64,000 bases of DNA from a virus, in IMG/VR virus record IMGVR_UViG_3300042301_002170; one strand, 5' to 3'. Positions 7,544-30,289 of this stretch are shown one piece after another. How positions within the stretch are numbered: position 1 is the first letter of the stretch; every line of letters starts with the position of its first letter. The notes under the pieces were generated by a model. That model saw only the letters and a program-made list of their open reading frames with translations, was not told where the DNA came from and did no database searches. The position numbers and the translations under genes were made by a program.

Positions 7544-7546
7544 ATT

Positions 7547-10226: not shown

Positions 10227-10235
10227 ATTATATTT

Positions 10236-11423: not shown

Positions 11424-12682
11424 ATTAAATTATAAAAATAGTTATCTTTTTCTTTTTTTAAATGATATGCACTAACGTATTCGTGGTTTTTAATAAATCT
11501 ATCTTTATTATTTACATAATAATTTTTTATTTCTTTTTTTAATTTTGATAATCTTACAATTTCATCCAAAACCATATGTAATCTTTTTTTAGCATCAATT
11601 TCTAAATCATAATCATGATTTATAATATCTTCAAATAAATCTAAATCAGGATGTTCTTTTTTTAATATTTCAACATGCCTATATGATGCTAAAAAAATTG
11701 GTAATTGATAAAAATAAAATGGTTTAAATGATTTTTCGGTCATATGAACATCTTTTATTTCATAGTGCGATTCAGTAACTATATTAATATAACTATTTTC
11801 GTATGATTTACATTCTATGTGTAAAAAATGTAAATAATTATCTGGGTTATCAAACCAATCTTTACCGGTTTCGTAAAAACTTAATTTTGGTTTAGAACAA
11901 ATTTCATAATAACTGTGTAGTAATTTTTTATCATTTGAACCGTCTATAAAAAATTGTTCTCCATATGTGGCTAATAGTGGATGATTCATTAATCCATATG
12001 TTAAAGACCAATCTATTAATCCAGAATCTAATAATTCATTATTTTTAAGTAATGTTAATATTGCAATTCTATGAGTCTTTGGTCTTCTATTTAAACATAG
12101 AAATAAAAACTCTTTATCTTCTACAAATGGAATTTTATATGGATTTTCAACTAATGAACTTGTACATAATTCTAATAAAAAATTTGATTTATATAAGTTA
12201 ATTGGTGTATTTTTTTTTATATCATTAGCTAATGAGTTATTATTTACAATATGAAATTGTTTTGGATTTAATTCTTTTTTATCAATTACTTTTGATAGAT
12301 TTTCTACATCAATACTAAGATTCATATAACTTTCGTGTTCACTTAAAAAAATTACTTTTAAATTTTTATTTCTAACACAATATTCAACTTCTTCCGATAG
12401 CTGCCATTCATTTTCATTGAACAAATTATTATATGAACAATAGTGTACAACGATATAATAATAATTTTCATTTGGGCTTATATCCGATAATTTACAATAA
12501 TTTTTTTCGTAATTATTATCCACCAAATCTTTACCTAAATTTGTAAAAAAATGCATAGGAGCTCCAACCTCAATATTGGGTATTGCTTCACAATTCAATT
12601 TTTCATTTAAAAAGATTAAATTAGGTATGGGTTTTCCATTATCATCCCACTTATCAAAAACTAAATTTAAAATACTACCCAT
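11420..12682 (-). CDS. Putative glycosyltransferase (GT10-like motif)
   Basis: FLCLNRRPKTHR, INIVTES...MTEKSFKPFYFYQLPIFLA...INHDYD. Start placed at the ATG at 12682 (MGSILNL), which overlaps the upstream stop region, instead of 12706. Confidence 0.5.
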   Translation of the reverse strand: MGSILNLVFDKWDDNGKPIPNLIFLNEKLNCEAIPNIEVGAPMHFFTNLGKDLVDNNYEKNYCKLSDISPNENYYYIVVHYCSYNNLFNENEWQLSEEVEYCVRNKNLKVIFLSEHESYMNLSIDVENLSKVIDKKELNPKQFHIVNNNSLANDIKKNTPINLYKSNFLLELCTSSLVENPYKIPFVEDKEFLFLCLNRRPKTHRIAILTLLKNNELLDSGLIDWSLTYGLMNHPLLATYGEQFFIDGSNDKKLLHSYYEICSKPKLSFYETGKDWFDNPDNYLHFLHIECKSYENSYINIVTESHYEIKDVHMTEKSFKPFYFYQLPIFLASYRHVEILKKEHPDLDLFEDIINHDYDLEIDAKKRLHMVLDEIVRLSKLKKEIKNYYVNNKDRFIKNHEYVSAYHLKKEKDNYFYNLI

Positions 12683-13296
12683 TTTCCTGTTCCGTAATGT
12701 GGCCAAACTTTTTCATACTCATACCAAATAATATCATTTGGAATTTCACTTTTAACATTCCAAGTTTCAACCGTTGGTGTGTATGTTGAAACTCCATTAT
12801 CTTCTACAACAAATGTAATTGGTAAATCAAAGTTTTTTGCATATTTGTAATTTTCCATAAAAGCACCCGTCTCAAATGCCATATCTCCAACAAAACACCA
12901 TACTTTATCTTGAGAACCATTTCTTTTGTTTGCCATAGCAACTCCCATTGCAATTGAAATCGTTCCACCAACTATTGCTGAAGAATAAAATTTTTCATCT
13001 TTATTTACAATAGTGATACTTCTACCAGCGAGAATCTCATCTTCTAACCATTTTGAATCAACTCCTTTTACTAATGCGTGATAATGAGAACGCCAAGTAC
13101 TAAATACCCAATCGGTTGATTTAATTCTTTTTCCAATTTCAATTATTTGTTCTTCATTTCCACCACTTAAATGTATAGGACCTCGTATGTTACCACCCTC
13201 CCATGCATCTGCTATTCTTCTTTCAAAATCAATTAATCCTTCTTTATCCCATAACGATTCCTTAACGATTGGGAAATTTTCTATGTTTTTTATCAT
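12667..13296 (-). CDS. ThDP-dependent enzyme, E1-alpha-like subunit (short)
   Basis: RGPIHLSGGNEE, STWRSHYHAL, SAIVGG, ThDP motif GDMAFETG...EDN; 209 aa, shorter than a full PDH E1-alpha. Confidence 0.85.
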   Translation of the reverse strand: MIKNIENFPIVKESLWDKEGLIDFERRIADAWEGGNIRGPIHLSGGNEEQIIEIGKRIKSTDWVFSTWRSHYHALVKGVDSKWLEDEILAGRSITIVNKDEKFYSSAIVGGTISIAMGVAMANKRNGSQDKVWCFVGDMAFETGAFMENYKYAKNFDLPITFVVEDNGVSTYTPTVETWNVKSEIPNDIIWYEYEKVWPHYGTGKWVVF

Positions 13297-13829
13297 CTGT
13301 CTCTTTTTTGTAAGATTGGGTTTTCAGTCGGCCATTCCATTTGAAACTCCGGGTCATTCCATTTAATTACACCTTGCTCATTTGCATCTACATATTGACC
13401 ATCATAAAATAAATTATAATGAAACATGCAATCAGTAAGTGCATAGTGGCCATTTGCAAACCCAGGAGGAACTAATACCTGTTGTCTGTTACGTTCAGAT
13501 ATGATGAATGATTCCCAATCCCCATAGGTAGGAGAATCTTCTCTTACATCCAAAACAATAAGGTATATATCACCAACCGCAGCCTGAACTAACTTCCAAG
13601 TTTTAGTATCATAGTGTAATCCTCTCAATACTCCTTTGTATGATTTTGAAAATCTACCATGTACCGAAACATATGGTGTAAGTTTTAACATTACAGGGTG
13701 TTCCTCTGAATGAAATGTTGTAAATATCTCACCTCTGTATTCTCTATAAATTGATGGTGTGTATATTTCTACTTCGTTTCCGAATTTGTTTGATGGCGTT
13801 ACATCAAACTGTTTCCAATTTGAACTCAT
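13293..13829 (-). CDS. rfbC: dTDP-4-dehydrorhamnose 3,5-epimerase family (RmlC/RfbC cupin)
   Basis: SKSYKGVLRGLHY, KLVQAAVGDIYLIVLDVR..SPTYG.W, VLVPPGFANGH, IKWNDP. Confidence 0.92.
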   Translation of the reverse strand: MSSNWKQFDVTPSNKFGNEVEIYTPSIYREYRGEIFTTFHSEEHPVMLKLTPYVSVHGRFSKSYKGVLRGLHYDTKTWKLVQAAVGDIYLIVLDVREDSPTYGDWESFIISERNRQQVLVPPGFANGHYALTDCMFHYNLFYDGQYVDANEQGVIKWNDPEFQMEWPTENPILQKRDR

Positions 13830-13879
13830 ATTAATTTTTTTACTTATTTTTTTATAAAAATTTAATTATTTCAAATACA

Positions 13880-14878
13880 TTATTTGGTTTGCCATGTATC
13901 CATAACACCACATATCTTATCATAATAACTTTTACTATTATGTCTATAATCATAGTATTTTGTAGTACCATTTGGTAGTTCTATACCATAAAAATCATCA
14001 TATTCTTCTAATAAAGTTTGACATTCTTCGTAGTTTGCAATTGGTATTCCACCAACATCGTTTATTTGTCCAATAGGACAATATCCAATTGCCAAATTTG
14101 GGTCATTCCAATCAAACCCCTTATCACTTATATATTTTTTAAATCCGTTATCCATATTAAATTCAAATTGTGGTCCAATATGAGCACTAAATTCTCCACT
14201 TATTAATCGGTGTTCGGATATTCCATCATCCGTTACATCTTCATCTTGGTCACAATATGCTTCATACCAAGTTTTACCTGTTTGTGCATAATGTAAATAA
14301 ATCATACCATTACCCACAGTTCTACTAAATTGTAATTTATCTTCCAAAGATATTTCTTGAAAACTCGGAGTTCCACAAATTGAATAATAAAAATAAAGAC
14401 TTTTACCAATACCTATATTAGTTCTTTTTATAGAATCATAATATGCTTCTAACGAATGGCAACTTAAATTTAATTTAGATATTGCAAATCTCTCCTCACC
14501 AGTTGCTCTTGCTAAAAAGCTAGATGGATTCCAAATTTGTCCTTGTAATGTTTCAAAATGTAAATGTAATTTATTTAATAACTCTCTATCAAATTCAGTT
14601 ACCAATGTTTCAAAAGGTTCATTTATTTTATCATAATCCGAATACCAATCGGCTGCTTTTAATAATCTAATACCCTCTACTAATTCTTCGCTAATCATTT
14701 GCGGAGTTCTATTTTTTGAAAACCCACCAACTAATGCAAAAGTTTTAACATATGCAATAAAATCGTTTTTTATAACATTTTCTAGCATTTTGTACCACTT
14801 TTCTTTAATCTTACTATCAAATAATGTAGTATTTACTTCTATAACATTATTATCAATATTTCTAAAATATAGTTTCAT
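13880..14878 (-). CDS. Hypothetical protein within the sugar operon
   Basis: 332-aa ORF in frame with the operon; His-containing motifs LNKLHLHFE, CHSLE, YLHYAQTGK; no family recognised. Confidence 0.6.
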   Translation of the reverse strand: MKLYFRNIDNNVIEVNTTLFDSKIKEKWYKMLENVIKNDFIAYVKTFALVGGFSKNRTPQMISEELVEGIRLLKAADWYSDYDKINEPFETLVTEFDRELLNKLHLHFETLQGQIWNPSSFLARATGEERFAISKLNLSCHSLEAYYDSIKRTNIGIGKSLYFYYSICGTPSFQEISLEDKLQFSRTVGNGMIYLHYAQTGKTWYEAYCDQDEDVTDDGISEHRLISGEFSAHIGPQFEFNMDNGFKKYISDKGFDWNDPNLAIGYCPIGQINDVGGIPIANYEECQTLLEEYDDFYGIELPNGTTKYYDYRHNSKSYYDKICGVMDTWQTK

Positions 14879-14911
14879 AATTAATTAATTTGTTTTTTTA
14901 TATTTTAATTA

Positions 14912-15883
14912 CTATGTATTATTTGCGTAACCTAATGGAAATCCGTTTCTAAATTCTGCTCCCATTCTTGGTACTATCATTTGATATGCTTCTATAAGTT
15001 GTTCAATACCCGCATCTAAACTCCAAGTTGGTTTCCAACCAGTTGCTTCGATTTTGGCATTAGAAACAATATAATCTCTTTTATCGGGGTCTTCGTAATA
15101 ATCATCATAAACTATTGCAAATTTTGGAACTTGTAATTTTATCTTTTCCAATAATTGTTGTTTATTTAAATTTGAATCACTTAAACCAACATTAAATACT
15201 TCACCTTTGTGTGTATCATAGTTGTGTAACATAAATACAAACGCATTAGCTACATCTTCTATATGAATAAAGTTTCTTTTAAAGTTTTTCTCAAATACTA
15301 CGATGTATTTATCAGTAATTGCTTTATAAGTAAAATCATTTACTAATAAATCTGTTCTCATTCTTGCAGATACTCCAAAGACGGTTGCTAATCTAAAAAT
15401 GATTGCATCTGTATGTTCTTTTAGAAGTCTTTCTGCTTCAACCTTAGTAGAACCATAAACCGATATTGGATTTAATGGAGATTCTTCAGTACATTCCGAT
15501 TGACCTTCCGCAATCCCATATCCACTATTTGTATTTGGATATAAAATCTTTTTACCTTTACCTTTTGTAAATTTTATTATGTTTTGAATTTGAATTAAAT
15601 TTAATTCTTTTGCCAATTGAGGTTCGGCATCGCAAGCAGGAAATCCTACAATGGCTGCTAATGGAATTATTACATCTGCCTGATTGCAAAGTTTTTCCAA
15701 TAGTTTTTCATTACGAACATCTCCGTATATAAACTTGAATTCAGAATGATGTGTGTATTGTAGTAAAGAAGTTTGATTGAATAGTAGTTTATCTAAAACT
15801 ATAACGGAATGCCCTTCTTGCAACATTCTACCAACTATAACAGAACCCAAATAACCGGCTCCACCTGTAATTAATATCTTCAT
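14912..15883 (-). CDS. NAD-dependent epimerase/dehydratase (extended SDR)
   Basis: ITGGAGYLGS, LAAIVG, YGSTK (YxxxK), FRLATVFG.S.RMR.DLLVNDF, RNFIHIEDVA. Confidence 0.9.
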   Translation of the reverse strand: MKILITGGAGYLGSVIVGRMLQEGHSVIVLDKLLFNQTSLLQYTHHSEFKFIYGDVRNEKLLEKLCNQADVIIPLAAIVGFPACDAEPQLAKELNLIQIQNIIKFTKGKGKKILYPNTNSGYGIAEGQSECTEESPLNPISVYGSTKVEAERLLKEHTDAIIFRLATVFGVSARMRTDLLVNDFTYKAITDKYIVVFEKNFKRNFIHIEDVANAFVFMLHNYDTHKGEVFNVGLSDSNLNKQQLLEKIKLQVPKFAIVYDDYYEDPDKRDYIVSNAKIEATGWKPTWSLDAGIEQLIEAYQMIVPRMGAEFRNGFPLGYANNT

Positions 15884-16100: not shown

Positions 16101-19100
16101 ATGAAATTAGAAGTAGATAAGCCGGAAGTAACGGGTTTAGTTGTAGTATATTCAGGACGTTTCCAACCATTTCACGCTGGACACTATGTATCCTATTTAA
16201 AACTTTGCAAAAAGTTTGGTAAGGAGAATGTATATATTGCAACATCTAATAGTACATCTGGTCCAAAATCTCCATTTGATTTTAAAGAAAAGAAAGAAAT
16301 TGCAACAAAAATGTTCAATGTTCCTTCTGATAGATTTATACAAGTTTCAAATCCATACGCACCCAAAGAAGTACTACAAGGTTTTGATGGAAAAACTACT
16401 GCTTATATTGCAGCAGTTGGTGAAAAGGATGAAAGTAGATTAAGTGGTAAATACTTTAAACCATACAAAGGTAAAACCGGATATGGATATGATGAAATAG
16501 GATACACATACGCAGTTCCTGCCGAATCAAACCCAATTAGTGGAACAGATGTTCGTAATTGGTTAGGTAGTGGAGATGATGAATCTAAAAAGAAAGGATT
16601 CTTAAAAGCATATCCAAAGTTCAATGCAGATATTTTTAAAATGATAACAAACAAATTAAACGAAGATGGTTTTCCAGGAGGAATTGGAACAGGATTGAAT
16701 CTTCCAGGTGGATATATTAATGGAGCACCAACGGGTTCTGCAAATGAATCAAATAATACAGAACCATCTTCTGCATTAAGACCTGAACCAAAACCAACAA
16801 GACATCAAATAGAACACCCATCAGACGAACCAAATTGGCATAAAAATGAAAGTTTATATGACCCAATTGGGCATATAATTGATAGAGTTCTTGCAGAACA
16901 AATGTTTAATGAATTTGTAGATTCGTATTTTACAGAAGCACCAAATCCTATAATGGATAAGGAGTTTGATTATACTGCAGCAGATGGAAGTAAGAAGAAA
17001 ATTAAAGTTAAGAGTGCATTAAGATTAGCAAAAGACCATCCTGCACACGTTCAAGCTTCCAAAATGGTTGGTAGTGATAAACCCAATGCAATGGCAAAAG
17101 GACCAACAGATGCACCTGCAAACGAACCAAATAAATTACCTGAACCTGGTAAAGCTGCAACTCAATCGGCAAAACCTTCTCAACCTGGACAACCGGTTAA
17201 GAAAGGACAAACTCAACAAGGTAAAGCAGATAAAGAAAAAGGAGAAGCACCTGCACCACAAGGAGCACAAGCTCCACCACCGGAACAAAAATTAAGTGGT
17301 GGTGAATTAAAAACGGCAGCTGAAAAAACACCAGAAGAAAAATCAAAAGAGAAAAAAGCTGAAAAACAAAATGCATTTAAATCATTTTTTAATGATGCAA
17401 GTGATTCTATTAAAAAAGAAGCATCGGCACTTTGGAAAGATTTTAATACAGAAGAACACCACGATGCACATGAAATGGCAAATCCTGAATCTGAAACTAG
17501 AAAAGGATTTATAGACCGTGCTGCAGATTTTATGGCAGAGTTTCCAGATAATATGGTAAAAGGTGCATATAATGTTGTAAAACACAAATATCACCAATTT
17601 AAAAATACTGCAAAAGGTGTAAAATCATTAGCAACTTCTTTATCACATGGTAAAGGGATTCAATTTGGCTATGAAAAAGGTAAAGATGGAAAGTGGGGAG
17701 TTAATAAAGATGAAGCAGAAAAACAGAAAAAAGCAGCTAAAGCAACGGCAATTGATGCAGCTAAAATAGCAGCAGCAGTTGTTACCGGTGGTGCAGTAAG
17801 TGGTGTAATGGGTCATTTAGCAGGAGGAGGAGCATTTGGTGGTTTAGGACAAGCTGCACTTAGTGGTGCGGGAGAAACACTTTCTCATGGAGTTACTGGA
17901 TTTGTAAGCCATATGGGAGTAGATTTTGCAAAACATTGCGGATTTGAAGCATTGGGATTAGGTGTAGGATTTGAGTTTGAGCAAGCTGAAAAAATAGCAG
18001 CAAGAGCAGGTGTTGCAACCGTAGGAGTTGTTCCACATATAGGTAAATTATTCCACAATGCAATGAGTTATGTTATGTCCGAAAATGCTACACCAGAAGA
18101 TGAAGAAAAGCAAAACGCAGATTTACTTATGAATTTGGTGGCAACTGTTTTGGAAAAAATGAAAGATTTCAAACCAACATCACAACAAATGTTTGAAACA
18201 ATGAAATCCTATTCAGAAGCTAAAAAAGAAAAGGAAGAAAAACAAAAAGGACTTGAAACGGCAAAATTATTAAAACCAATACAAGAACAAATTTCTCCAT
18301 TAAAAAGAGAAAATGTAAGTAATTTTGTAGAATACGCAACTAAAAGATTAAAATTAAAAGAACAACCAAAAGTAACATTAGTAGAAGACCCTGAGTTTTC
18401 AAGACAAAACCATTCATTGGGTGGATACAATGTTGATTCTAAAGAAATATTTGTAGCAACTGAAGGTAGATTAACTGCTGATATTTTAAGAACTATTGCA
18501 CATGAAATGGTTCATAGAAAGCAAGATGAAATGGGATTGATTGGTGATTCAGTAAAAGATGGAGCAACTGGTTCAACTGTTGAAAACAAAGCAAATTCAA
18601 TAGCAGCAATATTACTAAGAGAATATGGTAAGTTAAATAAAACAATTTACAATGAAGACATCAATATAGATGTTGATAAGGGTGATACTGTTTTAATGGG
18701 TAAATTCAAAAACAAAAAAGTTGTAGCAAAAGATTTTGGTACTGATGACCACGGAATGCCAACAATCAACGGTAAAGTTGCAACCACATTTAGAATACCA
18801 AGAGGAGAAAAGGCAAAACCAAATCCACAATCTGTATTTGATGAAGTTGGTTCAAATGATTGGCACTTCAAAGCAATTATGAAATTGTGGGATAAAGCAA
18901 ATTCGTATGGTAAAAAGAAAATTGGAGTAGCAGTTTGTAATGACCCAAATGCAAGTAAAAGAGAAATCGAAGCCCAATTGAGAGATACTGATTACGAAGA
19001 GGTAACTGATATGACCGATAAATTGGGATTAAAAGAATATATCGAAAAAAAAAAGTTAAATAAAATTGGTGAATCGGTTAATACAAAAAATCACAAACCT

Positions 19101-22100
19101 CACGGAACTCTTGACCATAATTTTAATCATCACCATAAATCATCTGCATACGCACCTGATTATGGGTATCCTGCTGAGTTAGATACAATAGATTTTGATG
19201 ATAAAAGAAAAAAACAACCAGGACATCAAGTAACCACAAAAGATACAGAGGATAGAGGATACGAACCTGTTAAAACTGAAAAATTAACACAATCTAATTT
19301 AGATAGTGTTGAAAGATATGCAGATAGAGAATTAGACCCTGCTGACATAGAGTTTAGTAATCACTTTTTTGATAGAGTTAATGATACTCGTAATGGTAAA
19401 GAAATATCCGAACCAGAACTAACTGGTTTCTTTAAGAGATTGGGAAGACACAAAAAACAATTCATAGATTTTTTAGAAAAGTACAATCAAATTGTAGTTA
19501 AAGACGATAGAAGTAATATCAATATTCCATTTGTAAAGATGGCAAATAAAGTTATTGCTAAAACTGTAATGAGAAAAGGTGATTTTCAAACCAATTCTCC
19601 TACAATCGTAAACGAAGAAACTCCATCAGAAATCATAAAAGATTTAGATAAGGTAAGACATGATTTGATTAAAAAAGTAGATGTTCTAATTGCTAAAAAG
19701 AAAAAACTTTACTCTAATGTTGATATTGAATCACCAATGAGTGCAGATGAAAAACAATTGGATAAAGATATACAATCTATATTTTCACAAATTCAACAAA
19801 TAATTCTTAAAAAAAGAACTTTAAAAGAATCTTTAAACGAAAATTCACAAGATAATATTGAAAAATTTGTTTTTTCGGTAGAAGATTTACCAAATGTAAA
19901 ATTTCATCATTTTAAAAATGGTTCATTATTTATTATAAATCATGAAAAATACCCATCGGAAGCGAGAAAAATTGCTAAATTAATTGAAAAATATAAAGTA
20001 AAACCTGAACTTATTCTTGATTATGATAAAAAATCAGGTGGTTGGATAAAGAAAGATGAAATTGGGTGGTATCTTCCTCATAATATATGGGAGCCACGTC
20101 AAAATAAATCTTTAAACGAAGTTAAATGGGAGGGTGATACATTCACTCGTTGTATGCAAGGTCAATTACCTCTTTCACTTAATATTGTTAAACAATTAGT
20201 TGAACCAATAAAAACAACTTCATTGCATGTAACTACAATTGAAAATTTATCAAAAGTTGCGGCATTAGAAGGAACTAAAAAATCAATTTCCACATTTAAT
20301 AAAATTGATAAATACTCAAAGATTGTACAAAATGGAAAAGGAGTAGATACCGATGGTGGTGTATTTGTATTAGTATCAGGAGTAGTATTGGCACAAAGTA
20401 TAATGGACTTATGGACTGCACCTGATAAGCAAGGTAGAAGATGGGTAAATCCTGGAACTGTAATAGATGGGTTAGGAAGAGAAACGGATATAGTTTTTAA
20501 TTTTGCACCACATTTAAAACCATTTAAGAAAAGATGGTTAGAAGACCCTTTAAACGAATTTACACCGGCTGAAAAGAATGAATTCATACGACTTTATTAT
20601 AAAGAGGCAGAGAAGTTTATGTTGAGTAAGAAAAAAGAGTTTCAAGATAAATATTTGAATTCAAACCAACTATACTATGAATCAGATTGGAATGAGGTTG
20701 TTCTTAATCAAATTAAAATTGAAAAGATTTTAGCTATTCCTAGTAATTGGGGTGGAGATGAAGCTGAAAATCAAAAAACATTAGAAAAACTTAAACAAAA
20801 ATATCCAAAAGTAGAAATTGGAAAAAATACTACTGACATTCAAAACTTTATTAAAAATAATGGTGGAAGTATCAGAGAATCTATAAACCAAAACAAATCT
20901 GTAATATCAGAAGGTGGTGCATACGGACACATGTCTCACCCGTTTGATGATATGAATTTAACATTTGGTGATTTAAAAAATATTATTACAGGAGCATTAA
21001 CTGGTAAATTAGAATTGACAAGAGAAAAAACCGATGGACAAGCTCTTGCAATTAGTTGGAAAAATGGTAGATTGATTGCAGCAAGAAACAAAGGTAATTT
21101 AGCTAACGCAGGAGCAAACGCAATGGGTATTGAAGATGTTGCATCAAAGTTTGCGGGTAGAGGTGGATTAACCGATGCTTACAACTTTGCAATGAAAGAT
21201 TTATCAGCAGCAATTAGTTCATTATCCGAACCACAGAGAAAGAAGATATTTGATGAGGGTAAGTGTTTTATGAACTTAGAAGTTATCTGGCCTACATCGG
21301 TAAATGTGATACCTTACGGACAACCCCTATTGGTATTCCACAATACAACTTGTTATGATGAAACTGGCAAAGCAGTTGGGGCAAATCAAGGGGCAGCAAC
21401 GATGTTGGCAGGAATGATTAAACAAGTTAATGGAGATGTTCAATCTAAATATACAATTCAGGGACCTCCTGTAACTAGATTACCAAATAATGAAGAATTG
21501 GGTTCTAAACAAACTAAATATTTAACACAATTACAAAAATTGCAATTTCAATTCCAATTAAGTAATAGAGATGGTGTTGCAGAATATCATCAGGCTTGGT
21601 GGGCAGACTTTATAGATAAGAGTAAAGTTAAATTACAGAAATTAGAAAGAGATGCGTTAATTAACAGATGGGCTTTCGGTGATAAATCATTCCGTTTAAA
21701 TACTATTACTGATAAAGATGCTCAAAAGTGGGCAATAGATAATGATAAAGTAAATGTTGCAAAACAACAAAAAGAAAACATTAGACCATTTGAGGAGATA
21801 TTTTTAGGAGTTGGAGCAGATGTATTATCATTTATGGATTCGGTATTAACTGCAAATCCAAATGCAGCAGTTGCAAGCATGAAACAAAGATTGAGGGATA
21901 CTGCTGATAAAGTAAGAGGTAGTGGGGATATAACTAAAATATCTAAATTAAAATCAGAATTGGCAAGATTACAATCAATTGGTGGATTAGATAAAATTGT
22001 TCCAAATGAGGGTATTGTATTTATTTATAAAGGAAACACTTATAAACTTACAGGAACTTTTGCACCATTAAATCAGATTTTAGGTATTTTTTACGAATAG
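16101..22100 (+). CDS. Giant multidomain (polyvalent) protein: HxGH cytidylyltransferase-like, Gly/Ala hydrophobic region, HExxH zincin, RelE-like, ART-like and C-terminal ligase-like (DUF6267-like) domains; probable internal head polyprotein
   Basis: SGRFQPFHAGH (16173-84); HEMVH (18501-15); IEFSNHFFDRVNDTRN; LHVT..SIST..WNEVV; EKTDG (K at 21027) ...EGIV..YK. Domains are separated by LNE/LKE/ISE-type junctions. Confidence 0.75.
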   Translation: MKLEVDKPEVTGLVVVYSGRFQPFHAGHYVSYLKLCKKFGKENVYIATSNSTSGPKSPFDFKEKKEIATKMFNVPSDRFIQVSNPYAPKEVLQGFDGKTTAYIAAVGEKDESRLSGKYFKPYKGKTGYGYDEIGYTYAVPAESNPISGTDVRNWLGSGDDESKKKGFLKAYPKFNADIFKMITNKLNEDGFPGGIGTGLNLPGGYINGAPTGSANESNNTEPSSALRPEPKPTRHQIEHPSDEPNWHKNESLYDPIGHIIDRVLAEQMFNEFVDSYFTEAPNPIMDKEFDYTAADGSKKKIKVKSALRLAKDHPAHVQASKMVGSDKPNAMAKGPTDAPANEPNKLPEPGKAATQSAKPSQPGQPVKKGQTQQGKADKEKGEAPAPQGAQAPPPEQKLSGGELKTAAEKTPEEKSKEKKAEKQNAFKSFFNDASDSIKKEASALWKDFNTEEHHDAHEMANPESETRKGFIDRAADFMAEFPDNMVKGAYNVVKHKYHQFKNTAKGVKSLATSLSHGKGIQFGYEKGKDGKWGVNKDEAEKQKKAAKATAIDAAKIAAAVVTGGAVSGVMGHLAGGGAFGGLGQAALSGAGETLSHGVTGFVSHMGVDFAKHCGFEALGLGVGFEFEQAEKIAARAGVATVGVVPHIGKLFHNAMSYVMSENATPEDEEKQNADLLMNLVATVLEKMKDFKPTSQQMFETMKSYSEAKKEKEEKQKGLETAKLLKPIQEQISPLKRENVSNFVEYATKRLKLKEQPKVTLVEDPEFSRQNHSLGGYNVDSKEIFVATEGRLTADILRTIAHEMVHRKQDEMGLIGDSVKDGATGSTVENKANSIAAILLREYGKLNKTIYNEDINIDVDKGDTVLMGKFKNKKVVAKDFGTDDHGMPTINGKVATTFRIPRGEKAKPNPQSVFDEVGSNDWHFKAIMKLWDKANSYGKKKIGVAVCNDPNASKREIEAQLRDTDYEEVTDMTDKLGLKEYIEKKKLNKIGESVNTKNHKPHGTLDHNFNHHHKSSAYAPDYGYPAELDTIDFDDKRKKQPGHQVTTKDTEDRGYEPVKTEKLTQSNLDSVERYADRELDPADIEFSNHFFDRVNDTRNGKEISEPELTGFFKRLGRHKKQFIDFLEKYNQIVVKDDRSNINIPFVKMANKVIAKTVMRKGDFQTNSPTIVNEETPSEIIKDLDKVRHDLIKKVDVLIAKKKKLYSNVDIESPMSADEKQLDKDIQSIFSQIQQIILKKRTLKESLNENSQDNIEKFVFSVEDLPNVKFHHFKNGSLFIINHEKYPSEARKIAKLIEKYKVKPELILDYDKKSGGWIKKDEIGWYLPHNIWEPRQNKSLNEVKWEGDTFTRCMQGQLPLSLNIVKQLVEPIKTTSLHVTTIENLSKVAALEGTKKSISTFNKIDKYSKIVQNGKGVDTDGGVFVLVSGVVLAQSIMDLWTAPDKQGRRWVNPGTVIDGLGRETDIVFNFAPHLKPFKKRWLEDPLNEFTPAEKNEFIRLYYKEAEKFMLSKKKEFQDKYLNSNQLYYESDWNEVVLNQIKIEKILAIPSNWGGDEAENQKTLEKLKQKYPKVEIGKNTTDIQNFIKNNGGSIRESINQNKSVISEGGAYGHMSHPFDDMNLTFGDLKNIITGALTGKLELTREKTDGQALAISWKNGRLIAARNKGNLANAGANAMGIEDVASKFAGRGGLTDAYNFAMKDLSAAISSLSEPQRKKIFDEGKCFMNLEVIWPTSVNVIPYGQPLLVFHNTTCYDETGKAVGANQGAATMLAGMIKQVNGDVQSKYTIQGPPVTRLPNNEELGSKQTKYLTQLQKLQFQFQLSNRDGVAEYHQAWWADFIDKSKVKLQKLERDALINRWAFGDKSFRLNTITDKDAQKWAIDNDKVNVAKQQKENIRPFEEIFLGVGADVLSFMDSVLTANPNAAVASMKQRLRDTADKVRGSGDITKISKLKSELARLQSIGGLDKIVPNEGIVFIYKGNTYKLTGTFAPLNQILGIFYE

Positions 22101-22816: not shown

Positions 22817-23443
22817 ATGGAAAAGATATTCTCATTCACAAACATTTTAATAATTGGTTTAGTTGCATTTATTGTATTTAAACAATGTAGTAGTGAGGAT
22901 AAATCTATTGAAACCATTAATGTTGATGGTAAAAAATACGAATTGTTAAAACATAAAATAGATACTTTTGTTGTTGAGCATACTCAAATCAAATACAAAA
23001 AAGGACAAGATATTTATCACGAAACAATTGTAGAAAAAGAAAAAAGAGTAGAAGTACCAGTTTATGTAAAAGCAGATAGTGAAAGAATTGTAAAAGAATA
23101 TCACACAAAAGTTTTGTATAAAGATAGATTGGTATTAAACGATGGGTTGGGTATTGTAGAAATAACCGATACTATCAGTAGAAATAAAATTATCGGTAGA
23201 AAATGGAATGCTCAGATAAATGAGAGAACTATTACCGATACTAAAATTGTAAAAGAACTTCCAAAAAACCAAGTTTATATAGGAGTAAATGGTATAGTGG
23301 GTAACTCATCTGCATTGATAGGACCACAACTTACTCTTAAAACTAAAAAAGATAATTTATACGGAGCAAATTTACTTATAGATGGAAACGGAAATAAGTA
23401 TTTTGGTGTATCGGTTGGTTGGAAGATTAAACTCAAAAAATAA
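22817..23443 (+). CDS. Membrane-anchored or lipoprotein-like protein with C-terminal beta-strand region (possible spanin-like)
   Basis: N-terminal hydrophobic helix ILIIGLVAFIVF then QCSSED; C-terminal amphipathic strands ending GVSVGWKIKLKK. Confidence 0.5.
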   Translation: MEKIFSFTNILIIGLVAFIVFKQCSSEDKSIETINVDGKKYELLKHKIDTFVVEHTQIKYKKGQDIYHETIVEKEKRVEVPVYVKADSERIVKEYHTKVLYKDRLVLNDGLGIVEITDTISRNKIIGRKWNAQINERTITDTKIVKELPKNQVYIGVNGIVGNSSALIGPQLTLKTKKDNLYGANLLIDGNGNKYFGVSVGWKIKLKK

Positions 23444-25050
23444 TGGCAGTTCAAGGGAAACCTAAGAAGTCTTTAAAAGAGATTATTGCAGAAGAATATC
23501 GTAAATGTGGGTTAGACCCAATTTACTTTATGAAAAAATATTGTGTTATACAACACCCAACAAGAGGTAAAATACCTTTTCACTTATATCCATTTCAGGA
23601 GAACTGTTTAACAGATTTTAAACAAGACCGTTTTAACATCATTCTTAAATCACGTCAGTTAGGTTTATCAACTCTTTCTGCGGGTTTTATTTTGTGGAAG
23701 ATGTTATTCAACGAAGATTTTAATGCATTGGTTATTGCAACTAAAGTAACAGTTGCAAAAAACTTAGTAGAGAAAGTAAGAGTAATGCACGATTTGTTAC
23801 CCGTTTGGTTAAGAGATGGTGGGAACTCTTCTGTTGAAGATAACAAACTATCACTTAAATTAAAGAACGGTTCTCAGGTCAAAGCAATAGCATCCTCACC
23901 CGATGCAGGACGTTCGGAAGCTCTATCCCTATTAGTAGTGGATGAGGCAGCATTCATTAGAGATATTGATGAGATTTGGTTATCGGCACAATCAACTCTA
24001 TCAACGGGTGGTAGTGCAATTGTATTATCTACTCCGAATGGTGTGGGTAACTGGTTTCATAAAATGTGGGTAGAAGGAGAAAGTGGTGCAAACGGATTCA
24101 ATCCTATAAATCTTCATTGGACAGTTCATCCAGAAAGAAATCAAACTTGGAGAGATGAACAAACTCGTATTTTGGGAGCAAAAGGAGCAGCACAAGAATG
24201 TGATTGCGACTTTGTTGGTTCCGGAGATACAGTAATAGACCCTGAGTTATTAACTTGGTATAAGAACACTTATGTAATGGAACCTGTTGAAAAAGCAGGA
24301 TTTGATAGAAACCTATGGAAATGGGAATATCCAAATTACAACAAACAATATATGGTTGTAGCTGACGTTGCAAGAGGAGATGCAGCCGATTATTCAACTG
24401 CACAAGTTTTAGATATTGAAGATTGTTCGCAAGTTGCTGAATATAGAGGAATGATTGATACCAAAGATTTTGGAAACTTTCTTACTGCATTAGCAACAGA
24501 ATACAACAATGCATTATTAGTAGTAGAAAACTCAAACGTAGGTTGGGCATGTATTCAACAAATTATAGATAGAGGATACCAAAATCTATTTTATATGAGT
24601 AACGACTTAAAATATATTGATGTTGAAAGACAAATGAGTAATAAGTTTTACAGAGATGAAAAACAAATGGTTGCAGGTTTCTCTACAACATCTAAAACAA
24701 GACCTTTGATTATTTCAGCATTGGATACATATATGAATGAAAAAGATATTCTTATTCGTAGTGGTAGATTAATAGATGAAATGTTTACATTTATTTGGCA
24801 TGGTGGTAGAGCAGAAGCAATGAAAGGATATAATGACGACTTAATTATGGCATTGGCAATTGGATTGTGGGTTCGTAATACTGCACTTCGTTTAAGACAA
24901 GAAGGAATTGATTTAACTAAAAATATGTTGAACTCATCGCACATAGCTAAATACGATGGATTTGTATCTACGGGTCATTTAACTAGAAATCCATATGAAA
25001 TGGAAGTGGGTAATAAAGAAATAGAAAGTTTAACTTGGTTACTTCAATAA
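23443..25050 (+). CDS. terL: Terminase large subunit (T4 gp17-like)
   Basis: Walker A KSRQLGLST, Walker B LLVVDEAAF, STPNG, nuclease VVADVARG and DDLIMALAI. Confidence 0.95.
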   Translation: MAVQGKPKKSLKEIIAEEYRKCGLDPIYFMKKYCVIQHPTRGKIPFHLYPFQENCLTDFKQDRFNIILKSRQLGLSTLSAGFILWKMLFNEDFNALVIATKVTVAKNLVEKVRVMHDLLPVWLRDGGNSSVEDNKLSLKLKNGSQVKAIASSPDAGRSEALSLLVVDEAAFIRDIDEIWLSAQSTLSTGGSAIVLSTPNGVGNWFHKMWVEGESGANGFNPINLHWTVHPERNQTWRDEQTRILGAKGAAQECDCDFVGSGDTVIDPELLTWYKNTYVMEPVEKAGFDRNLWKWEYPNYNKQYMVVADVARGDAADYSTAQVLDIEDCSQVAEYRGMIDTKDFGNFLTALATEYNNALLVVENSNVGWACIQQIIDRGYQNLFYMSNDLKYIDVERQMSNKFYRDEKQMVAGFSTTSKTRPLIISALDTYMNEKDILIRSGRLIDEMFTFIWHGGRAEAMKGYNDDLIMALAIGLWVRNTALRLRQEGIDLTKNMLNSSHIAKYDGFVSTGHLTRNPYEMEVGNKEIESLTWLLQ

Positions 25051-25647: not shown

Positions 25648-27399
25648 ATGGCAGATAAATCAGTATTAGGTAGGTTACAGAAATTATTTTCAACAAACAC
25701 CATTGTTCGTAAAACGGAAACAGGAACAAAGGTAATTGACACAGATGAGTGGCAAAATATGACCACGAATTTGGTTGACAGATTCACAAAGTTAAAAGTA
25801 ACTAACTATGGAACTGGTCAAATAGAATCTGCAATGGCGTACCAACAAGTTCGTATAGATTTATTTAGAGATTACGATTCAATGGATACTGACCCAATTA
25901 TGGCATCGGCATTGGATATTTACGCAGATGAATGTACTGCAAAGAATGAACAAGGTAATATCCTAAAGATACATCACGAAGATGATAATATCAAACAAAT
26001 ATTAGAAAACTTATTTTATGATATTTTAAATGTTGAGTTTAATCTTTGGCCTTGGACTAGAAACTTAGTTAAATACGGAGATTTTTTCTTACATTTAGAA
26101 ATTGCAGAAGAAGAAGGTATTGGTATTATAAATGTAATGCCGTTATCAGCATACGAAGTTAGTAGAATGGAAGGTTTTGACCAAGCCAATCCACAAAGAG
26201 TTAAATTTGTGTATGCACCTTATCAAAACCCATATGGGGCATTTGGGCAATCTCCTAAAAAAGAATTTGAAAACTATGAGATGGCTCATATGAGATTAAA
26301 CTCTGATTCAAACTTTTTACCTTACGGAAAATCTATGATTGAGGGTGGTAGGAGAGTTTGGAAACAATTAATGTTGATGGAAGATGCAATGTTAATCCAC
26401 AGAGTAATGAGAGCACCTGAAAAGAGAATCTTTAAAATTGATGTAGGTAATATTCCACCAAATGAGGTAGATAATTATATGCAGAAAATTATCAACAACT
26501 CTAAAAAAGTTCCTTTTGTTGATGAAAGAACGGGTGAATATAATTTAAAATACAACGTTCAAAACCTTATTGAAGATTATTATATGCCAGTTCGTGGTAA
26601 TGATAATGGTACATCTATTGATACCTTAAAAGGTTTAGAATATAATATGATTGATGACATCAATTATTTAAAAAATAAAATGATGGCATCTTTAAAGATT
26701 CCAAAAGCATATTTAGGATACGAAGAAGATACTAATGGTAAAGCAACATTAGCATCTATGGATATTCGATTTGCTAAAACAATCGAAAGAGTTCAAAGAG
26801 TATTGATTTCAGAATTAACTAAAATTGCAATCGTTCACTTATATGCACAAGGTATAAATGATGACCGTTTAACTAATTTTACATTAGAATTAACTGTCCC
26901 ATCTAAAATATACGAACAAGAGCAAGTTGAATTATATACTTCAAAGGTAGCTTTAATTCAACAAATGCAACAAACAAAAATGTTCTCTAAAGAATGGATG
27001 TACGAATCCGTAATGAAGATGGCAAAAGATGAGCAAGATGAATTAACATTGGGAGTATTGGAAGATACAAAGCAAGCATTCCGTTTAACATCAATTGAAA
27101 CACAAGGAACAGACCCTGCTAAACCAACCGGTGTAGAAGGAAGTGAAACTACAAATGTTGAAGAAGAATTGGATAGATTAAAATCTGAATTATCAACAAA
27201 CGGAGTGGGAAGACCAAAAGACCCTGTTAGATATGGACACGATGACCATCCAGAGGGCAGAGACCCATTAGGAATTAAAACTCTTAAAACAAAAGAAGGT
27301 TCTGTAAAATATAAACCAAGAAACTCATACCAGGAAATATTTAAGGATATGGATGGTAACAAAAAAACTATTTTAACAGAAGATTTAGATAAAGAGTAA
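25648..27399 (+). CDS. gp20: Portal protein (T4 gp20-like)
   Basis: YGKSMIE..RRVWKQLMLMEDAMLIHRVMRAPEKRIFKIDVGNIP; EDYYMPVRG..GTSIDTLKG. Confidence 0.95.
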   Translation: MADKSVLGRLQKLFSTNTIVRKTETGTKVIDTDEWQNMTTNLVDRFTKLKVTNYGTGQIESAMAYQQVRIDLFRDYDSMDTDPIMASALDIYADECTAKNEQGNILKIHHEDDNIKQILENLFYDILNVEFNLWPWTRNLVKYGDFFLHLEIAEEEGIGIINVMPLSAYEVSRMEGFDQANPQRVKFVYAPYQNPYGAFGQSPKKEFENYEMAHMRLNSDSNFLPYGKSMIEGGRRVWKQLMLMEDAMLIHRVMRAPEKRIFKIDVGNIPPNEVDNYMQKIINNSKKVPFVDERTGEYNLKYNVQNLIEDYYMPVRGNDNGTSIDTLKGLEYNMIDDINYLKNKMMASLKIPKAYLGYEEDTNGKATLASMDIRFAKTIERVQRVLISELTKIAIVHLYAQGINDDRLTNFTLELTVPSKIYEQEQVELYTSKVALIQQMQQTKMFSKEWMYESVMKMAKDEQDELTLGVLEDTKQAFRLTSIETQGTDPAKPTGVEGSETTNVEEELDRLKSELSTNGVGRPKDPVRYGHDDHPEGRDPLGIKTLKTKEGSVKYKPRNSYQEIFKDMDGNKKTILTEDLDKE

Positions 27400-29088: not shown

Positions 29089-29699
29089 TGAAATTAAATC
29101 AATTAAAGGAGCTTGTTAGACAAGTTGTAAGAGAGGAGCAAGATTACCAACAACTTTTCAAACATATATTGGATAAATCGGGTAAATCAATTCCATCTAT
29201 GTCTGACGATGACAAGAAGAAATTCTTTAATGCAGTAGATACGGCATACAAAGCAAAATCAGAAGGTAGATTAAGAGGATATAATGAAAACTTACCTGGA
29301 AATCAAGAGAAGTTAGATACTGATAAAGATGGTGAAATTGAAGCAAGTGATTTAGCAAAATTAAGAGCTAGTAAAAACGAATCATTAAAAGAAGAAAATC
29401 CTGGTCTATGGGCAAATATAAGAGCTAAGCAAGATAGAGGTGAAAAACCGGCACATGGTAATTCGGATGCACATAAAGACGCAGTTAAAGCAGCTAAATC
29501 AATAAATAAAGGAGAATCGGTAAACGAAGAAGAAATTAAATGGAATGCAGTTGAAAATGCAATCATTAACTTTCTAAAAATGAATACAAAGATTTTAGAT
29601 AAAAGAGTTAAGGATAGAGATACTGATGGTGTTAAAGGTGGATTACAATCAATAATTGATGGTTTAACTAACGCACAACGTAGTTTAAAATTAAAGTAA
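29088..29699 (+). CDS. Putative internal head protein (EF-hand-like loop module)
   Basis: MKLNQLKELVRQVVRE leader; LDTDKDGEIEASDLAKLR (DxDxDG loop); GLWANIRAK module. Confidence 0.5.
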   Translation: MKLNQLKELVRQVVREEQDYQQLFKHILDKSGKSIPSMSDDDKKKFFNAVDTAYKAKSEGRLRGYNENLPGNQEKLDTDKDGEIEASDLAKLRASKNESLKEENPGLWANIRAKQDRGEKPAHGNSDAHKDAVKAAKSINKGESVNEEEIKWNAVENAIINFLKMNTKILDKRVKDRDTDGVKGGLQSIIDGLTNAQRSLKLK

Positions 29700-30289
29700 T
29701 GAGCAAAGGATTATTGATAGAAACTCATTTGTTTGAAGCAAAGATACAAGAAGAATCTAACGGTACTTTACTTGTTAAAGGTGTTTTGCAAAGAGCGGGT
29801 GCTGAAAATCAAAATGGTAGAAGATACCCTAAAGAAATTCTTGAAAGAGAATGTAAAAAATATCAACAACTTATTAATGAAAGAAGAGCATTGGGTGAAT
29901 TAGACCATCCAGATTCTCCAGTTATTAACTTAAAGAATGTATCACATAACGTTAGAGAAATCTATTGGGAAGGTGATGATGTATGTGGTACGGTTGAAAT
30001 CCTTTCTACACCATCAGGAAACATTCTCAAAGAATTATTAAAGAACAACATCCGTTTAGGTATTTCATCAAGAGGATTGGGTTCAGTAAAAGAATTAAGA
30101 GATGGAACTGTAATGGTTCAAGAAGATTTTGAGTTAGTAGGTTGGGATTTTGTTTCAAACCCATCTACGCATGGAGCATTTATGGCACCTGTAAACGAAT
30201 CTAAACAATGGAAGAAGATTGCAGATGAGTGTGGTAAATGGTGTAAAGCACAAGATTTAATGAGAGAAATATTAATAGAATTAAACTAA
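29699..30289 (+). CDS. gp21: Prohead core protease (T4 gp21-like)
   Basis: NQNGRRYP, ALGELDHP, VSH, LGISSRGLGS, DFVSNPSTHGA. Confidence 0.93.
   Translation: MSKGLLIETHLFEAKIQEESNGTLLVKGVLQRAGAENQNGRRYPKEILERECKKYQQLINERRALGELDHPDSPVINLKNVSHNVREIYWEGDDVCGTVEILSTPSGNILKELLKNNIRLGISSRGLGSVKELRDGTVMVQEDFELVGWDFVSNPSTHGAFMAPVNESKQWKKIADECGKWCKAQDLMREILIELN

Follow-up and report, generated by a model that had tools for sequence, protein, structure and literature searches.

A putative, highly divergent RNA-ligase-type domain at the C-terminal end of a late phage polyprotein

The C-terminal 395 aa (P0002) of a long open reading frame (P0001) carry the motifs and the predicted fold of a ligase, and are judged, with roughly even confidence, to form a very divergent ATP-dependent enzyme of the RNA-ligase type that is packaged in the phage head, released by a protease and used to seal RNA. 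Motifs, conservation, fold and gene linkage were established computationally; the activity, the substrate and the packaging are proposed from them. The window referred to below is the whole stretch of viral DNA that was analysed (64,000 nt), and the features discussed are listed with their positions in Table 1.

Table 1. Positions of the polyprotein ORF, its domains and motifs, and relevant downstream genes in the window.
Feature	Position	Strand	Details
Polyprotein ORF P0001, both enzymes inside	16101..22100	+	Single open frame, 1999 codons/1999 aa
Leader MKLE, candidate capsid-targeting propeptide	16101..16112	+	Hydrophobic-x-Glu end
HIGH-motif nucleotidyltransferase (NTase) domain, NadM/NMNAT-like	16134..16670	+	Residues ~12-190
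HxGH motif H25-A-G-H28	16173..16184	+	Within FQPFHAGH
ISGTDVR, second signature motif of HIGH nucleotidyltransferases	16536..16556	+	T149, R152 invariant
V-I-S-E, candidate prohead-protease cleavage site	20901..20912	+	Abuts the ligase-like domain
Ligase-like covalent nucleotidyltransferase domain P0002	20913..22097	+	395 aa, C-terminal end of P0001
Family-specific conserved N-terminal motif GGAYGHMSHPFD	20913..20948	+	Before motif I; the P0002 translation begins with it
Motif I EKTDG	21024..21038	+	Lys codon 21027-21029; K39 of the domain is K1643 of the ORF
Motif Ia ARNK	21081..21092	+	A57, R58 invariant; N59, K60 nearly
Motif III NLEVI (E123)	21273..21287	+	E123 invariant; model strand 118-125
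Motif IIIa LLVFH	21327..21341	+	F142, H143 nearly invariant; model strand 139-148
Helical insert, ~170 aa, between motifs IIIa and IV	21480..21992	+	Residues ~190-360; model helices 194-361
Motif IV EGIVF	22008..22022	+	E366, G367, F370 invariant; model strand 367-372
Motif V YKLTG, one lysine (K378)	22041..22055	+	K378, G381, F383 invariant; model strand 375-379
Terminase large subunit, conserved downstream neighbour	23443..25050	+	phrog_2 E 8e-46
T4-type prohead core serine protease, candidate processing enzyme	29699..30289	+	Pfam Peptidase_S77 E 7.6e-30

Six ligase motifs (I, Ia, III, IIIa, IV and V) were located where the sequence-only reading had placed them, and their key residues were conserved in relatives. 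Conservation was scored in alignments of 16 and 40 sequences (relatives at 38-71% identity), and K39, D41, G42, A57, R58, E123, E366, G367, F370 and K378 were invariant in both. Judged from these alignments, the motif set exceeds chance, because the relatives keep its key residues unchanged or almost so and the model puts each motif on the strand where the ligase fold would have it. Motif I has the KxDG form of the superfamily with its lysine, K39, which is the predicted AMP acceptor, and motifs III, IIIa, IV and V come next in sequence, each on a strand of the nucleotide-binding pocket. In the hhalign alignment, NLEVI stands opposite NFEFV of T4 Rnl1, the segment with the motif III glutamate.

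Residues G1, G2, A3, G5, H6 and H9 of the motif that opens the domain, GGAYGHMSHPFD, were nearly invariant in the alignment of relatives. The structural alignments begin at this motif, opposite the stretch of T4 Rnl1 that leads up to motif I (from residue 72), and it may take part in nucleotide binding. The helical insert (pI 9.25; R252 and G301 invariant, W253 nearly so) is bypassed by the ligase alignments, which span about 185 core residues. P0002 has no OB-fold domain with motif VI: just 17 residues follow motif V, and the model has only one helix there. An OB domain is typically lacking in RNA ligases, not in DNA ligases.

The sequence-only reading had staked its case on a ligase fold, and the AlphaFold (AF2) model of P0002 (pLDDT 91.9, pTM 0.88) has the ligase-type nucleotidyltransferase fold. 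The label ATP-grasp that it had given to this fold was a loose one; the proper name is the covalent nucleotidyltransferase (ligase/capping) fold. The best structural matches (VIA-align) were NgrRnl (Z 9.1 over 187 aa, rmsd 4.1), REL1 (8.5), T4 Rnl1 (8.4), T4 Rnl2 (8.0) and Trl1 (7.8), the best Z being only moderately over the level that the tool calls common and the query being a predicted structure. DNA ligases followed at Z 5.6-7.3 and a capping enzyme at Z 5.0. Ligase domains made up 49 of the 50 top structural rows (among the matches listed), and RNA ligases ranked above DNA ligases in both structural searches; Foldseek E values for the P0002 model against ligases were only about 1e-2. The fold is thus predicted to be that of a ligase-type covalent nucleotidyltransferase, with RNA ligases nearest.

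By sequence, homology to the ligases is barely detectable. K39 was paired by hhalign with K35 of T4 Rnl2 and K99 of T4 Rnl1 (E 0.0094-0.09), in alignments that cover little beyond motif I, plus motif III for Rnl1. P0002 was recognised by no Pfam, PHROG, NCBIfam or PDB sequence model. PF09414 (RNA_ligase) gave no match to P0002 and sub-threshold matches to 5 of 40 relatives (best E 0.0057), and Mel-JY01 scored 12.5 bits against it (cut-off 27).

P0002 is predicted to have, across some 175-200 residues (Z 8.0-9.1), the fold of the ATP-dependent RNA ligases Rnl5 (Naegleria NgrRnl, 5COT/6VT3), Rnl2 and REL1 (2HVQ, 1XDN) and Rnl1 (T4 gp63, 2C5U), and shares with them the order of the six motifs, the putative lysine nucleophile and the lack of an OB domain past motif V. 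Unlike these enzymes, to which it is only 9-15% identical, it falls below every Pfam ligase threshold and has no N- or C-terminal accessory domain, whose place is taken by the helical insert (about 170 aa). The family is further set apart from them by the one-lysine motif V, a GGAxGHxxHPFD head of its own and an origin at the end of a polyprotein.

P0001 is a multi-module polyprotein and not a two-domain enzyme. The earlier description of two enzymes in one late protein stands in that both lie in one ORF, but the product is a polyprotein of several modules that is probably cut apart. Frames of the P0001 type were found in 80 IMG/VR relatives (794-1945 aa), with constant ends (N-terminal NTase, C-terminal ligase-like domain) and a variable middle. 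Among 150 listed representatives, the order assigned by motif regex was NTase before ligase in 82 and the reverse in 5; in a relative of 30% identity the NTase and the ligase were unfused neighbours (NTase homology, hhalign E 4.8e-6). The + strand ORF is closely followed by the genes for terminase, portal, T4-type prohead protease and major head protein. A same-strand terminase match lay downstream in 78 of the 80 related loci, mostly 740-1433 nt past the stop codon, with the portal gene also directly downstream in most loci, and the same gene-terminase arrangement was present in L004 and in Mel-JY01, a cultured Microcystis phage whose related protein is WWT39297.

Like T4-type processing systems, the window combines a Peptidase_S77 gene with hydrophobic-x-Glu sequences at the leader and at module borders. 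A [LIVMF]xE site was present in the leader before the NTase in 58 of 64 full-length relatives, and [LIM]xE immediately preceded GGAYGH in 79 of the 80 IMG/VR loci; stand-alone ligase genes begin with M-GGAYGH, or with a leader of 2-40 aa that mostly ends in xE. Across the whole ORF [LIVMF]xE was not enriched (36 observed, 36 +/- 5 in shuffles). The T4 capsid-targeting sequence is about 10 aa long, and T4 proteins that are targeted to the capsid, trimmed by gp21 and injected are known (PMC9958956); by analogy, the MKLE leader may act as such a sequence. The gp21-type protease gene nearby, the short hydrophobic-x-Glu leaders and the location in the head module recall the T4 internal proteins IPI-III and Alt (PMC9958956), in contrast to which a single precursor here, reaching about 2000 aa, holds many enzymes, and its processing and packaging are predicted. 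These site patterns make it probable that the NTase and the ligase-like domain, as the conserved termini of the polyprotein, are separated by cleavage at hydrophobic-x-Glu sites and do not act as one bifunctional enzyme.

The motif FQPFHAGH, noticed before at the N-terminus of the same protein, was confirmed. The predicted fold supports the domain that carries it as a HIGH-motif nucleotidyltransferase, with NadM and archaeal NMNAT as its nearest matches. Its AF2 model (pLDDT 91.6) had NadM, NMNAT and NadD as top Foldseek matches (E 5e-6 to 1e-4, prob 1.00; NadM 5.4e-6), with TM-scores of only about 0.5 against NadM/NMNAT. In sequence searches, the domain just missed the cut-off of Pfam CTP_transf_like (E 1e-3, 19.7 bits; cut-off 21) and matched phrog_395 (E 3e-9), and the family profile matched MJ0541 NMNAT (8.4e-6) and F. 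tularensis NadM (1.5e-5) in the PDB; ISGTDVR was aligned with EYSGTEIRR of MJ0541. NadM and archaeal NMNATs (2QJO, 2QJT, 1F9A, 1EJ2) likewise have a Rossmann-like fold with GRFQPFHxGH and ISGTxxR motifs. Unlike in those enzymes, there is no Nudix partner, H25 and G27 are exchanged to G and H (GxHH) in about half of 28 relatives (H28 being invariant), and only the two motif regions align to NMNATs, the central NMN-binding segment being unaligned. Two complete relatives, a third at 77% completeness and Mel-JY01 yielded no Nampt or NAPRTase gene. These last three observations weaken the suggestion, made from the sequence at the outset, that NAD+ is restored by adenylylation of NMN.

The other suggestion made then, RNA repair, fared better in part: a P-loop kinase, HD, CCA-adding enzyme and 2H occur in the same or adjacent genes of relatives, but no end-healing kinase/phosphatase module was recognisable in P0001 by Pfam and other profile searches. 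In P0052 the modules run NTase, kinase (AAA_33), HD, CCA-adding enzyme and ligase; in L004, consecutive genes encode the NTase, a CCA-adding enzyme with 2H and a stand-alone ligase; Zeta/AAA_33 kinases were present in 4 of 34 long members. Such company is like that of the ligases of T4 tRNA repair (Pnkp and Rnl1) and of fungal and plant Trl1 (ligase-kinase-2H CPDase), and P0002 has Trl1-LIG and Rnl1 near the top of its structural matches (Z 7.8-8.4). Unlike in those systems, the healing modules are optional in the family, the phage enzymes are apparently virion cargo and not early products, and the constant NMNAT-like partner has no counterpart there. Complete relatives also carry a canonical Rnl2-type ligase adjoining an AAA_33 kinase, so that a second RNA ligase needs a rationale of its own.

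P0001 also resembles the polyvalent proteins of phages and conjugative elements (Iyer et al. 2017, PMC5512222) in being a multidomain late-gene product with a zincin-like HExxH module, disparate enzymes and a predicted injection. According to the same paper, polyvalent proteins join unrelated activities, so that fused neighbours are poor guides to a shared pathway, and their 2H domains never associate with RNA ligases; a term search of it returned no passage listing a ligase-superfamily or HIGH-motif NTase domain among them (PMC5512222).

Under the preferred explanation, the polyprotein, with the NMNAT-like HxGH NTase as its first module and the RNA-ligase-type domain as its last, would enter the prohead and be cut at hydrophobic-x-Glu sites by the T4-type prohead protease of the phage, which would release a ligase starting with GGAYGH. 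The pieces would then leave the head together with the phage DNA. In the cell, K1643 would take AMP and hand it to a 5'-phosphate end, which would be joined to a 3'-OH; most likely, the ligase would reseal RNAs, above all tRNAs, cut by host defence nucleases, and could do so ahead of any phage protein synthesis. We infer AMP transfer, the RNA substrate, cleavage, packaging and the role of the NTase partner from the features described above.

An unlikely alternative is that the domain acts as a DNA ligase on the phage genome, sealing its nicks or joining its ends, either during replication or immediately after injection. Such a ligase would share superfamily and chemistry with the domain; DNA ligases are among the structural matches, and a complete relative of 245 kb (G001) and Mel-JY01 have neither a PF01068 nor a PF01653 DNA ligase. 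However, RNA ligases score higher in both structural searches, G002 has a canonical DNA ligase alongside the ligase-like domain, its fusion partners belong to RNA metabolism (CCA-adding enzyme, 2H), and the gene lies within the late structural module, away from the replication genes. The lack of an OB domain past motif V also argues against this reading, as every ATP-dependent DNA ligase known to us has one.

It is improbable, too, that the domain is an end-modifying adenylyltransferase which, with its NMNAT-like partner, tags RNA or DNA 5' ends (App- or dinucleotide caps) or AMPylates a target, protecting phage nucleic acid or disabling host molecules. Simple sealing leaves the obligatory pairing of two nucleotidyl-transfer enzymes, fused or unfused, unexplained, and motif V has one lysine and not the usual two. 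The complete motif set is conserved, however, including the motif IV and V residues for later ligation steps, and capping enzymes are the lowest of the superfamily matches. To our knowledge, such a ligase/NMNAT enzyme pair is without precedent, which also counts against this reading. Ligases and NMNATs were proposed in a review as candidates for post-transcriptional capping, but E. coli NadD and NadR gave no RNA capping when assayed (PMC8131947).

That the NMNAT-like and ligase-like enzymes form a dedicated two-step pair, and are not separate cargos, is quite doubtful; in it, the adenylyl donor would be made or recycled by the HIGH-motif enzyme (an NAD+- or dinucleotide-dependent ligase with built-in NMN recycling), or a dinucleotide-type 5' cap (App- or NAD-like) would be installed on RNA post-transcriptionally. 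A cap-installing pair, if real, would give post-transcriptional cofactor capping its first enzyme system, one that the virion delivers ready-made.

Very unlikely is an NAD+-dependent ligase whose NMNAT-like partner remakes NAD+ from freed NMN and ATP and sustains ligation in cells stripped of NAD+ by defence systems. No LigA or other NAD+-dependent ligase was among the top 50 structural matches listed, a LigA-type Ia domain is not recognisable, and the NMN-binding centre of the NTase is the part unaligned to NMNATs. On the other side stand the nearness of the partner to NMN adenylyltransferases, the single-lysine motif V, which we take to resemble the LigA pattern, and weak matches around motif I to PF01653 (4 of 40 members) and TIGR00575 (E 0.095), those to PF01653 being limited to motif I and sub-threshold (best E 0.025). 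A catalytically dead ligase remnant kept for structure or scaffolding, as the great divergence of the family and its escape from curated models might suggest, is scarcely credible, because every catalytic motif residue is fixed, or almost fixed, even among relatives that are only 39% identical, in a family of 1817 representative clusters, which is the pattern of an active enzyme.

If active, the RNA-ligase-type domain would define a large RNA-ligase clade invisible to database models, with an unusual topology, the accessory helical domain being placed inside the catalytic domain, and with an NMNAT-like enzyme as its constant partner. Head loading and injection, if they do take place, would make it a ready RNA-repair enzyme that acts ahead of phage translation, a logical counter to tRNA-cutting defence nucleases; we know of no delivered RNA-repair kit of this kind that has been described experimentally. 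What the window by itself gains is one module with a firmer annotation. The family as a whole would be a source of new candidate ligases for biotechnology: it comprises at least 1817 representative clusters (50% identity) at E<=1e-3 and at least 590 IMG/VR loci, and its carriers are mostly aquatic T4-like and jumbo phages.

The open frame that carries the ligase domain runs for 1999 codons on the plus strand (window 16101-22100), with the domain at its 3' end, in AT-rich phage DNA (window G+C content about 30%). Translation of 20913-22097 gave 395 residues with the N-terminus GGAYGHMSHPFD. All ligase motifs named in the sequence-only reading were found at the positions assigned to them (e.g., EGIV at 22008 and, for motif I, the codon of the lysine at 21027), and residues 21-28 of the ORF were confirmed to read FQPFHAGH. 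Across two alignments, of 16 and 40 relatives (38-71% identity), K39, D41 and G42 (motif I), A57 and R58 (Ia), E123 (III), E366, G367 and F370 (IV) and K378, G381 and F383 (V) were invariant, and N59, K60, F142 and H143 nearly so.

The ligase-domain family comprised 1817 representative clusters at E ≤ 1e-3 (574 at E ≤ 1e-30) and at least 590 loci in IMG/VR. Among GenBank phages it was found in three records only, Microcystis phage Mel-JY01 being the sole cultured one, and 25 kb of the window had no megablast match, i.e., no close nucleotide relatives, among these phages. Every named member is labelled 'hypothetical protein' in public sources, and the literature search found no paper on the family and none naming Mel-JY01 or DUF6267 (see below). 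In bacterial and archaeal genomes the family was detected in five MAG contigs, two as partial matches; those of known length are short and probably phage-derived. Two short contigs of a Pelagibacteraceae MAG from Lake Baikal (freshwater; L088 and L089) carry a ligase-like gene with 67% and 37% identity; with the G+C content of the window, they hint at a SAR11-type host, or at mere binning by composition.

An AlphaFold2 model of the ligase domain, built on the 40-sequence alignment, had a mean pLDDT of 91.9 and a pTM of 0.88. In agreement with the ligase-like fold proposed earlier, every motif sat on the strand expected in the nucleotide-binding pocket of ligases, and Foldseek matches in the PDB were nearly all ligases, with weak E values (about 1e-2). 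An independent structural search against representatives ranked RNA ligases first: NgrRnl of Naegleria (Z 8.8, 187 residues, rmsd 4.2), T. brucei REL1 (Z 8.5), T4 Rnl2 (8.0), fungal Trl1 (7.8) and T4 Rnl1 (7.4). A second structural alignment gave Z scores of 9.1 for NgrRnl, 8.4 for T4 Rnl1, 5.6-7.3 for DNA ligases and 5.0 for the human capping enzyme. The aligned core of about 185 residues was drawn from residues 1-190 and 361-395; it is discontinuous on account of a helical insertion of about 170 residues that separates motifs IIIa and IV. Only 17 residues follow motif V, so an OB domain is lacking. The domain is very probably an RNA-ligase-type covalent nucleotidyltransferase.

Searches of Pfam, PHROGs and NCBIfam, and phmmer/hmmsearch against the PDB, returned nothing significant for the ligase domain; matches to eS6 and mS56 were dismissed as lysine-rich helical noise. 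Comparison of the family profile by hhalign gave E values of 0.09 against T4 Rnl2, 0.04 against T4 Rnl1 and 0.0094 against a four-sequence Rnl2-type profile, placing K39 opposite K35 of T4 Rnl2 and K99 of T4 Rnl1, and the motif III segment NLEVI opposite NFEFV of T4 Rnl1. Among the weak Pfam matches of 40 members, RNA_ligase (5) and DNA_ligase_aden (4) were the commonest after the NTase family. At the level of sequence, the support for kinship with ligases is thin but consistent. The ESM Atlas returned viral clusters, 24% of whose members bear DUF6267; the model of the latter (PF19782) had no match in Mel-JY01 or any control genome, and is not among the weak matches listed for the 40 family members. 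The ligase domain is predicted to work like the Rnl-type RNA ligases, yet scores below the threshold of every curated ligase family. What sets it apart is its topology (a helical insert inside the domain, without a terminal accessory domain), a single-lysine motif V, the GGAxGHxxHPFD head and the NMNAT-like NTase as constant partner; it is too divergent for any described Rnl clade.

Additional Pfam domains in 34 long relatives included P-loop kinases of the AAA_33/Zeta/KTI12 type (four relatives), the head of the CCA-adding enzyme with its RNA-binding domain (two), an HD domain (one) and a 2H phosphoesterase (one). In one relative (P0052) the order is NTase, DUF5661, kinase, HD, CCA-adding enzyme and ligase, and in a related locus (L004) a like order occurs as separate genes (NTase with cupin, CCA-adding enzyme with 2H, stand-alone ligase, two small ORFs, terminase and T4-type portal). 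Such activities make up heal-and-seal RNA repair, as in T4 Pnkp with Rnl1 and in Trl1. These modules, together with the lack of an OB domain and the order of the structural matches, point to RNA as the predicted substrate of the ligase domain. Two observations count against RNA as substrate. In the window's own polyprotein no healing module was recognisable with Pfam or NCBIfam, and a canonical Rnl2-type ligase (PF09414) is encoded beside an AAA_33 kinase elsewhere in complete relatives (Table), so that these phages have two RNA-ligase-type enzymes. A role as DNA ligase would suit the lack of a canonical DNA ligase in one complete relative and in Mel-JY01; it is disfavoured because the OB domain is missing, RNA ligases rank higher in the structural searches, the enzymes fused or adjacent in relatives are RNA enzymes and the gene occupies a late position.

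In the best 150 representatives, a motif regex located the NTase before the ligase in 82 and directly after it in 5. Of 80 IMG/VR loci, those that include the ORF's 5' end have the NTase in frame with the ligase in all but four cases; ORF length ranged from 794 to 1945 aa, which makes NTase and ligase constant bookends of a variable middle. The minimal form of about 600 aa consists of these two domains only (e.g., WWT39297 of Mel-JY01). On a MAG contig, a stand-alone relative (30% identical) is accompanied by a gene for a homologous HIGH-motif NTase, encoded on the opposite strand at a distance of 1.5 kb (hhalign E 4.8e-6, 153 columns). Fusion in both orders and this unfused neighbourhood argue for a functional tie between NTase and ligase; complex prediction for the two domains scored 0.00, which speaks neither for nor against contact.

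Assignment of the partner (residues ~12-190) to the HIGH-motif NTase fold is solid. The region matched CTP_transf_like just below the Pfam cut-off and phrog_395 ('cytidyltransferase', 3e-9), and the first matches of its family profile were the NMNAT of M. jannaschii (8.4e-6), NadM of F. tularensis (1.5e-5) and the NMNAT of M. thermoautotrophicum. The profile alignment to NMNATs covered GRFQPFHxGH and ISGTxxR; the centre of the domain, the NMN-binding region in NMNATs, did not align. The AlphaFold model (pLDDT 91.6) matched NadM, archaeal NMNAT and NadD in Foldseek (E 5e-6 to 1e-4), followed by PPAT. In about half of the relatives GxHH replaces HxGH (window 16173-16184; alignment A4) and only the final histidine is invariant; judged from the alignment, the signature histidine seems shifted by two positions rather than lost. 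The peptide LPGGYINGAP right behind the NTase (window 16701-16730) is near-identical in P0016, P0140 and P0145, relatives of very different architectures.

The obligatory pairing would be accounted for by a non-sealing adenylyltransferase or capping function exerted together with the NTase, or by an NAD+-dependent ligase whose NMN is recycled by the NTase; little speaks directly for either. Following cleavage of NAD+, an NMNAT would be supplied by Nampt or NAPRTase; no gene for these was found in Mel-JY01, in two complete relatives or in a further one that is 77% complete. A catalytically dead enzyme is unlikely because the catalytic residues are invariant. A role of the NTase in supplying a phage Tpt1 was rejected, as five related records yielded no Tpt1.

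The residues V-I-S-E immediately precede the domain start at 20913, and [LIM]-x-E abuts GGAYGH in 79 of 80 related loci. Stand-alone genes begin with M-GGAYGH or bear leaders of 2-40 residues, mostly with an x-E end, and the leader before the NTase has a hydrophobic-x-Glu site in 58 of 64 full-length relatives. Over the whole ORF such sites were not enriched (36, against 36 ± 5 in shuffles). The T4 prohead protease is specific for hydrophobic-x-Glu, and a T4-type prohead protease is encoded downstream (Table). T4 directs Alt and its internal proteins to the core; gp21 trims them, and they are injected (PMC9958956). Boundary sites, leaders, protease and T4 precedent together fit a candidate polyprotein that would be loaded into the head and cut apart at hydrophobic-x-Glu sites, the pieces then being ejected. 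In the polyvalent-protein survey (PMC5512222), no passage retrieved by term listed a ligase or HIGH-motif NTase as a domain.

Table. Coordinates of head-module genes in the window and of Rnl2-type ligase genes in relatives
Feature	Coordinates	Strand	Remark
Terminase large subunit	23443-25050	+	downstream of polyprotein ORF
T4-type portal	25648-27399	+	downstream of polyprotein ORF
Head-module ORF	28321-29088		matches DUF3008, 2.6e-6
Peptidase_S77 prohead protease, T4-type	29699-30289	+	downstream of polyprotein ORF
Head-module ORF	30985-31356		matches DUF5856, 1.7e-13
Major head protein	32934-34559	+	downstream of polyprotein ORF
Rnl2-type ligase + AAA_33 kinase	G001:C1:1692-3473		complete relative
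Rnl2-type ligase + AAA_33 kinase	G002:C1:174659-176158		complete relative
Rnl2-type ligase + AAA_33 kinase	Mel-JY01 67682-70896		Microcystis phage

Two small ORFs lie between the polyprotein ORF and the terminase, on the same strand. Immediately before the polyprotein there is a block of ten minus-strand ORFs (6995-15883), whose final member (14912-15883) matches a nucleotide-sugar epimerase (phrog_540, 2.9e-43); tRNA genes were absent from the window. In an ENA contig with a 90% identical ligase domain (L003), the frame is annotated as three separate genes (1448, 244 and 391 aa), reflecting either a true gene split or frameshifts; its terminase carries an intein.

Within the middle of the polyprotein, an Atlas search with residues 1341-1604 returned no match. 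The stretch at residues ~500-640 (window ~17600-18020) is hydrophobic and rich in Gly and Ala (39% G+A); it recurs in the relative P0145 (1693 aa) and may act on membranes or bind a scaffold. The short zincin-like HExxH motif HEMVH (residues 801-805, window 18501-18515; TIAHEMVHRKQDEMG) is kept in P0145, and one relative matches SprT-like. Residues ~1066-1170 (window ~19296-19610) matched phrog_14518 (6.7e-5) and, weakly, the T4 endoribonuclease RegB (Pfam E 0.059); this module, with an HFFDR...R motif and also present in P0047, may represent RNase cargo. A small module, GDTVLMGKFKNKKV...GMPTINGK (window 18681-18719 and beyond), is common to relatives P0016, P0020, P0078, P0089 and P0145 and behaves as a portable cassette.
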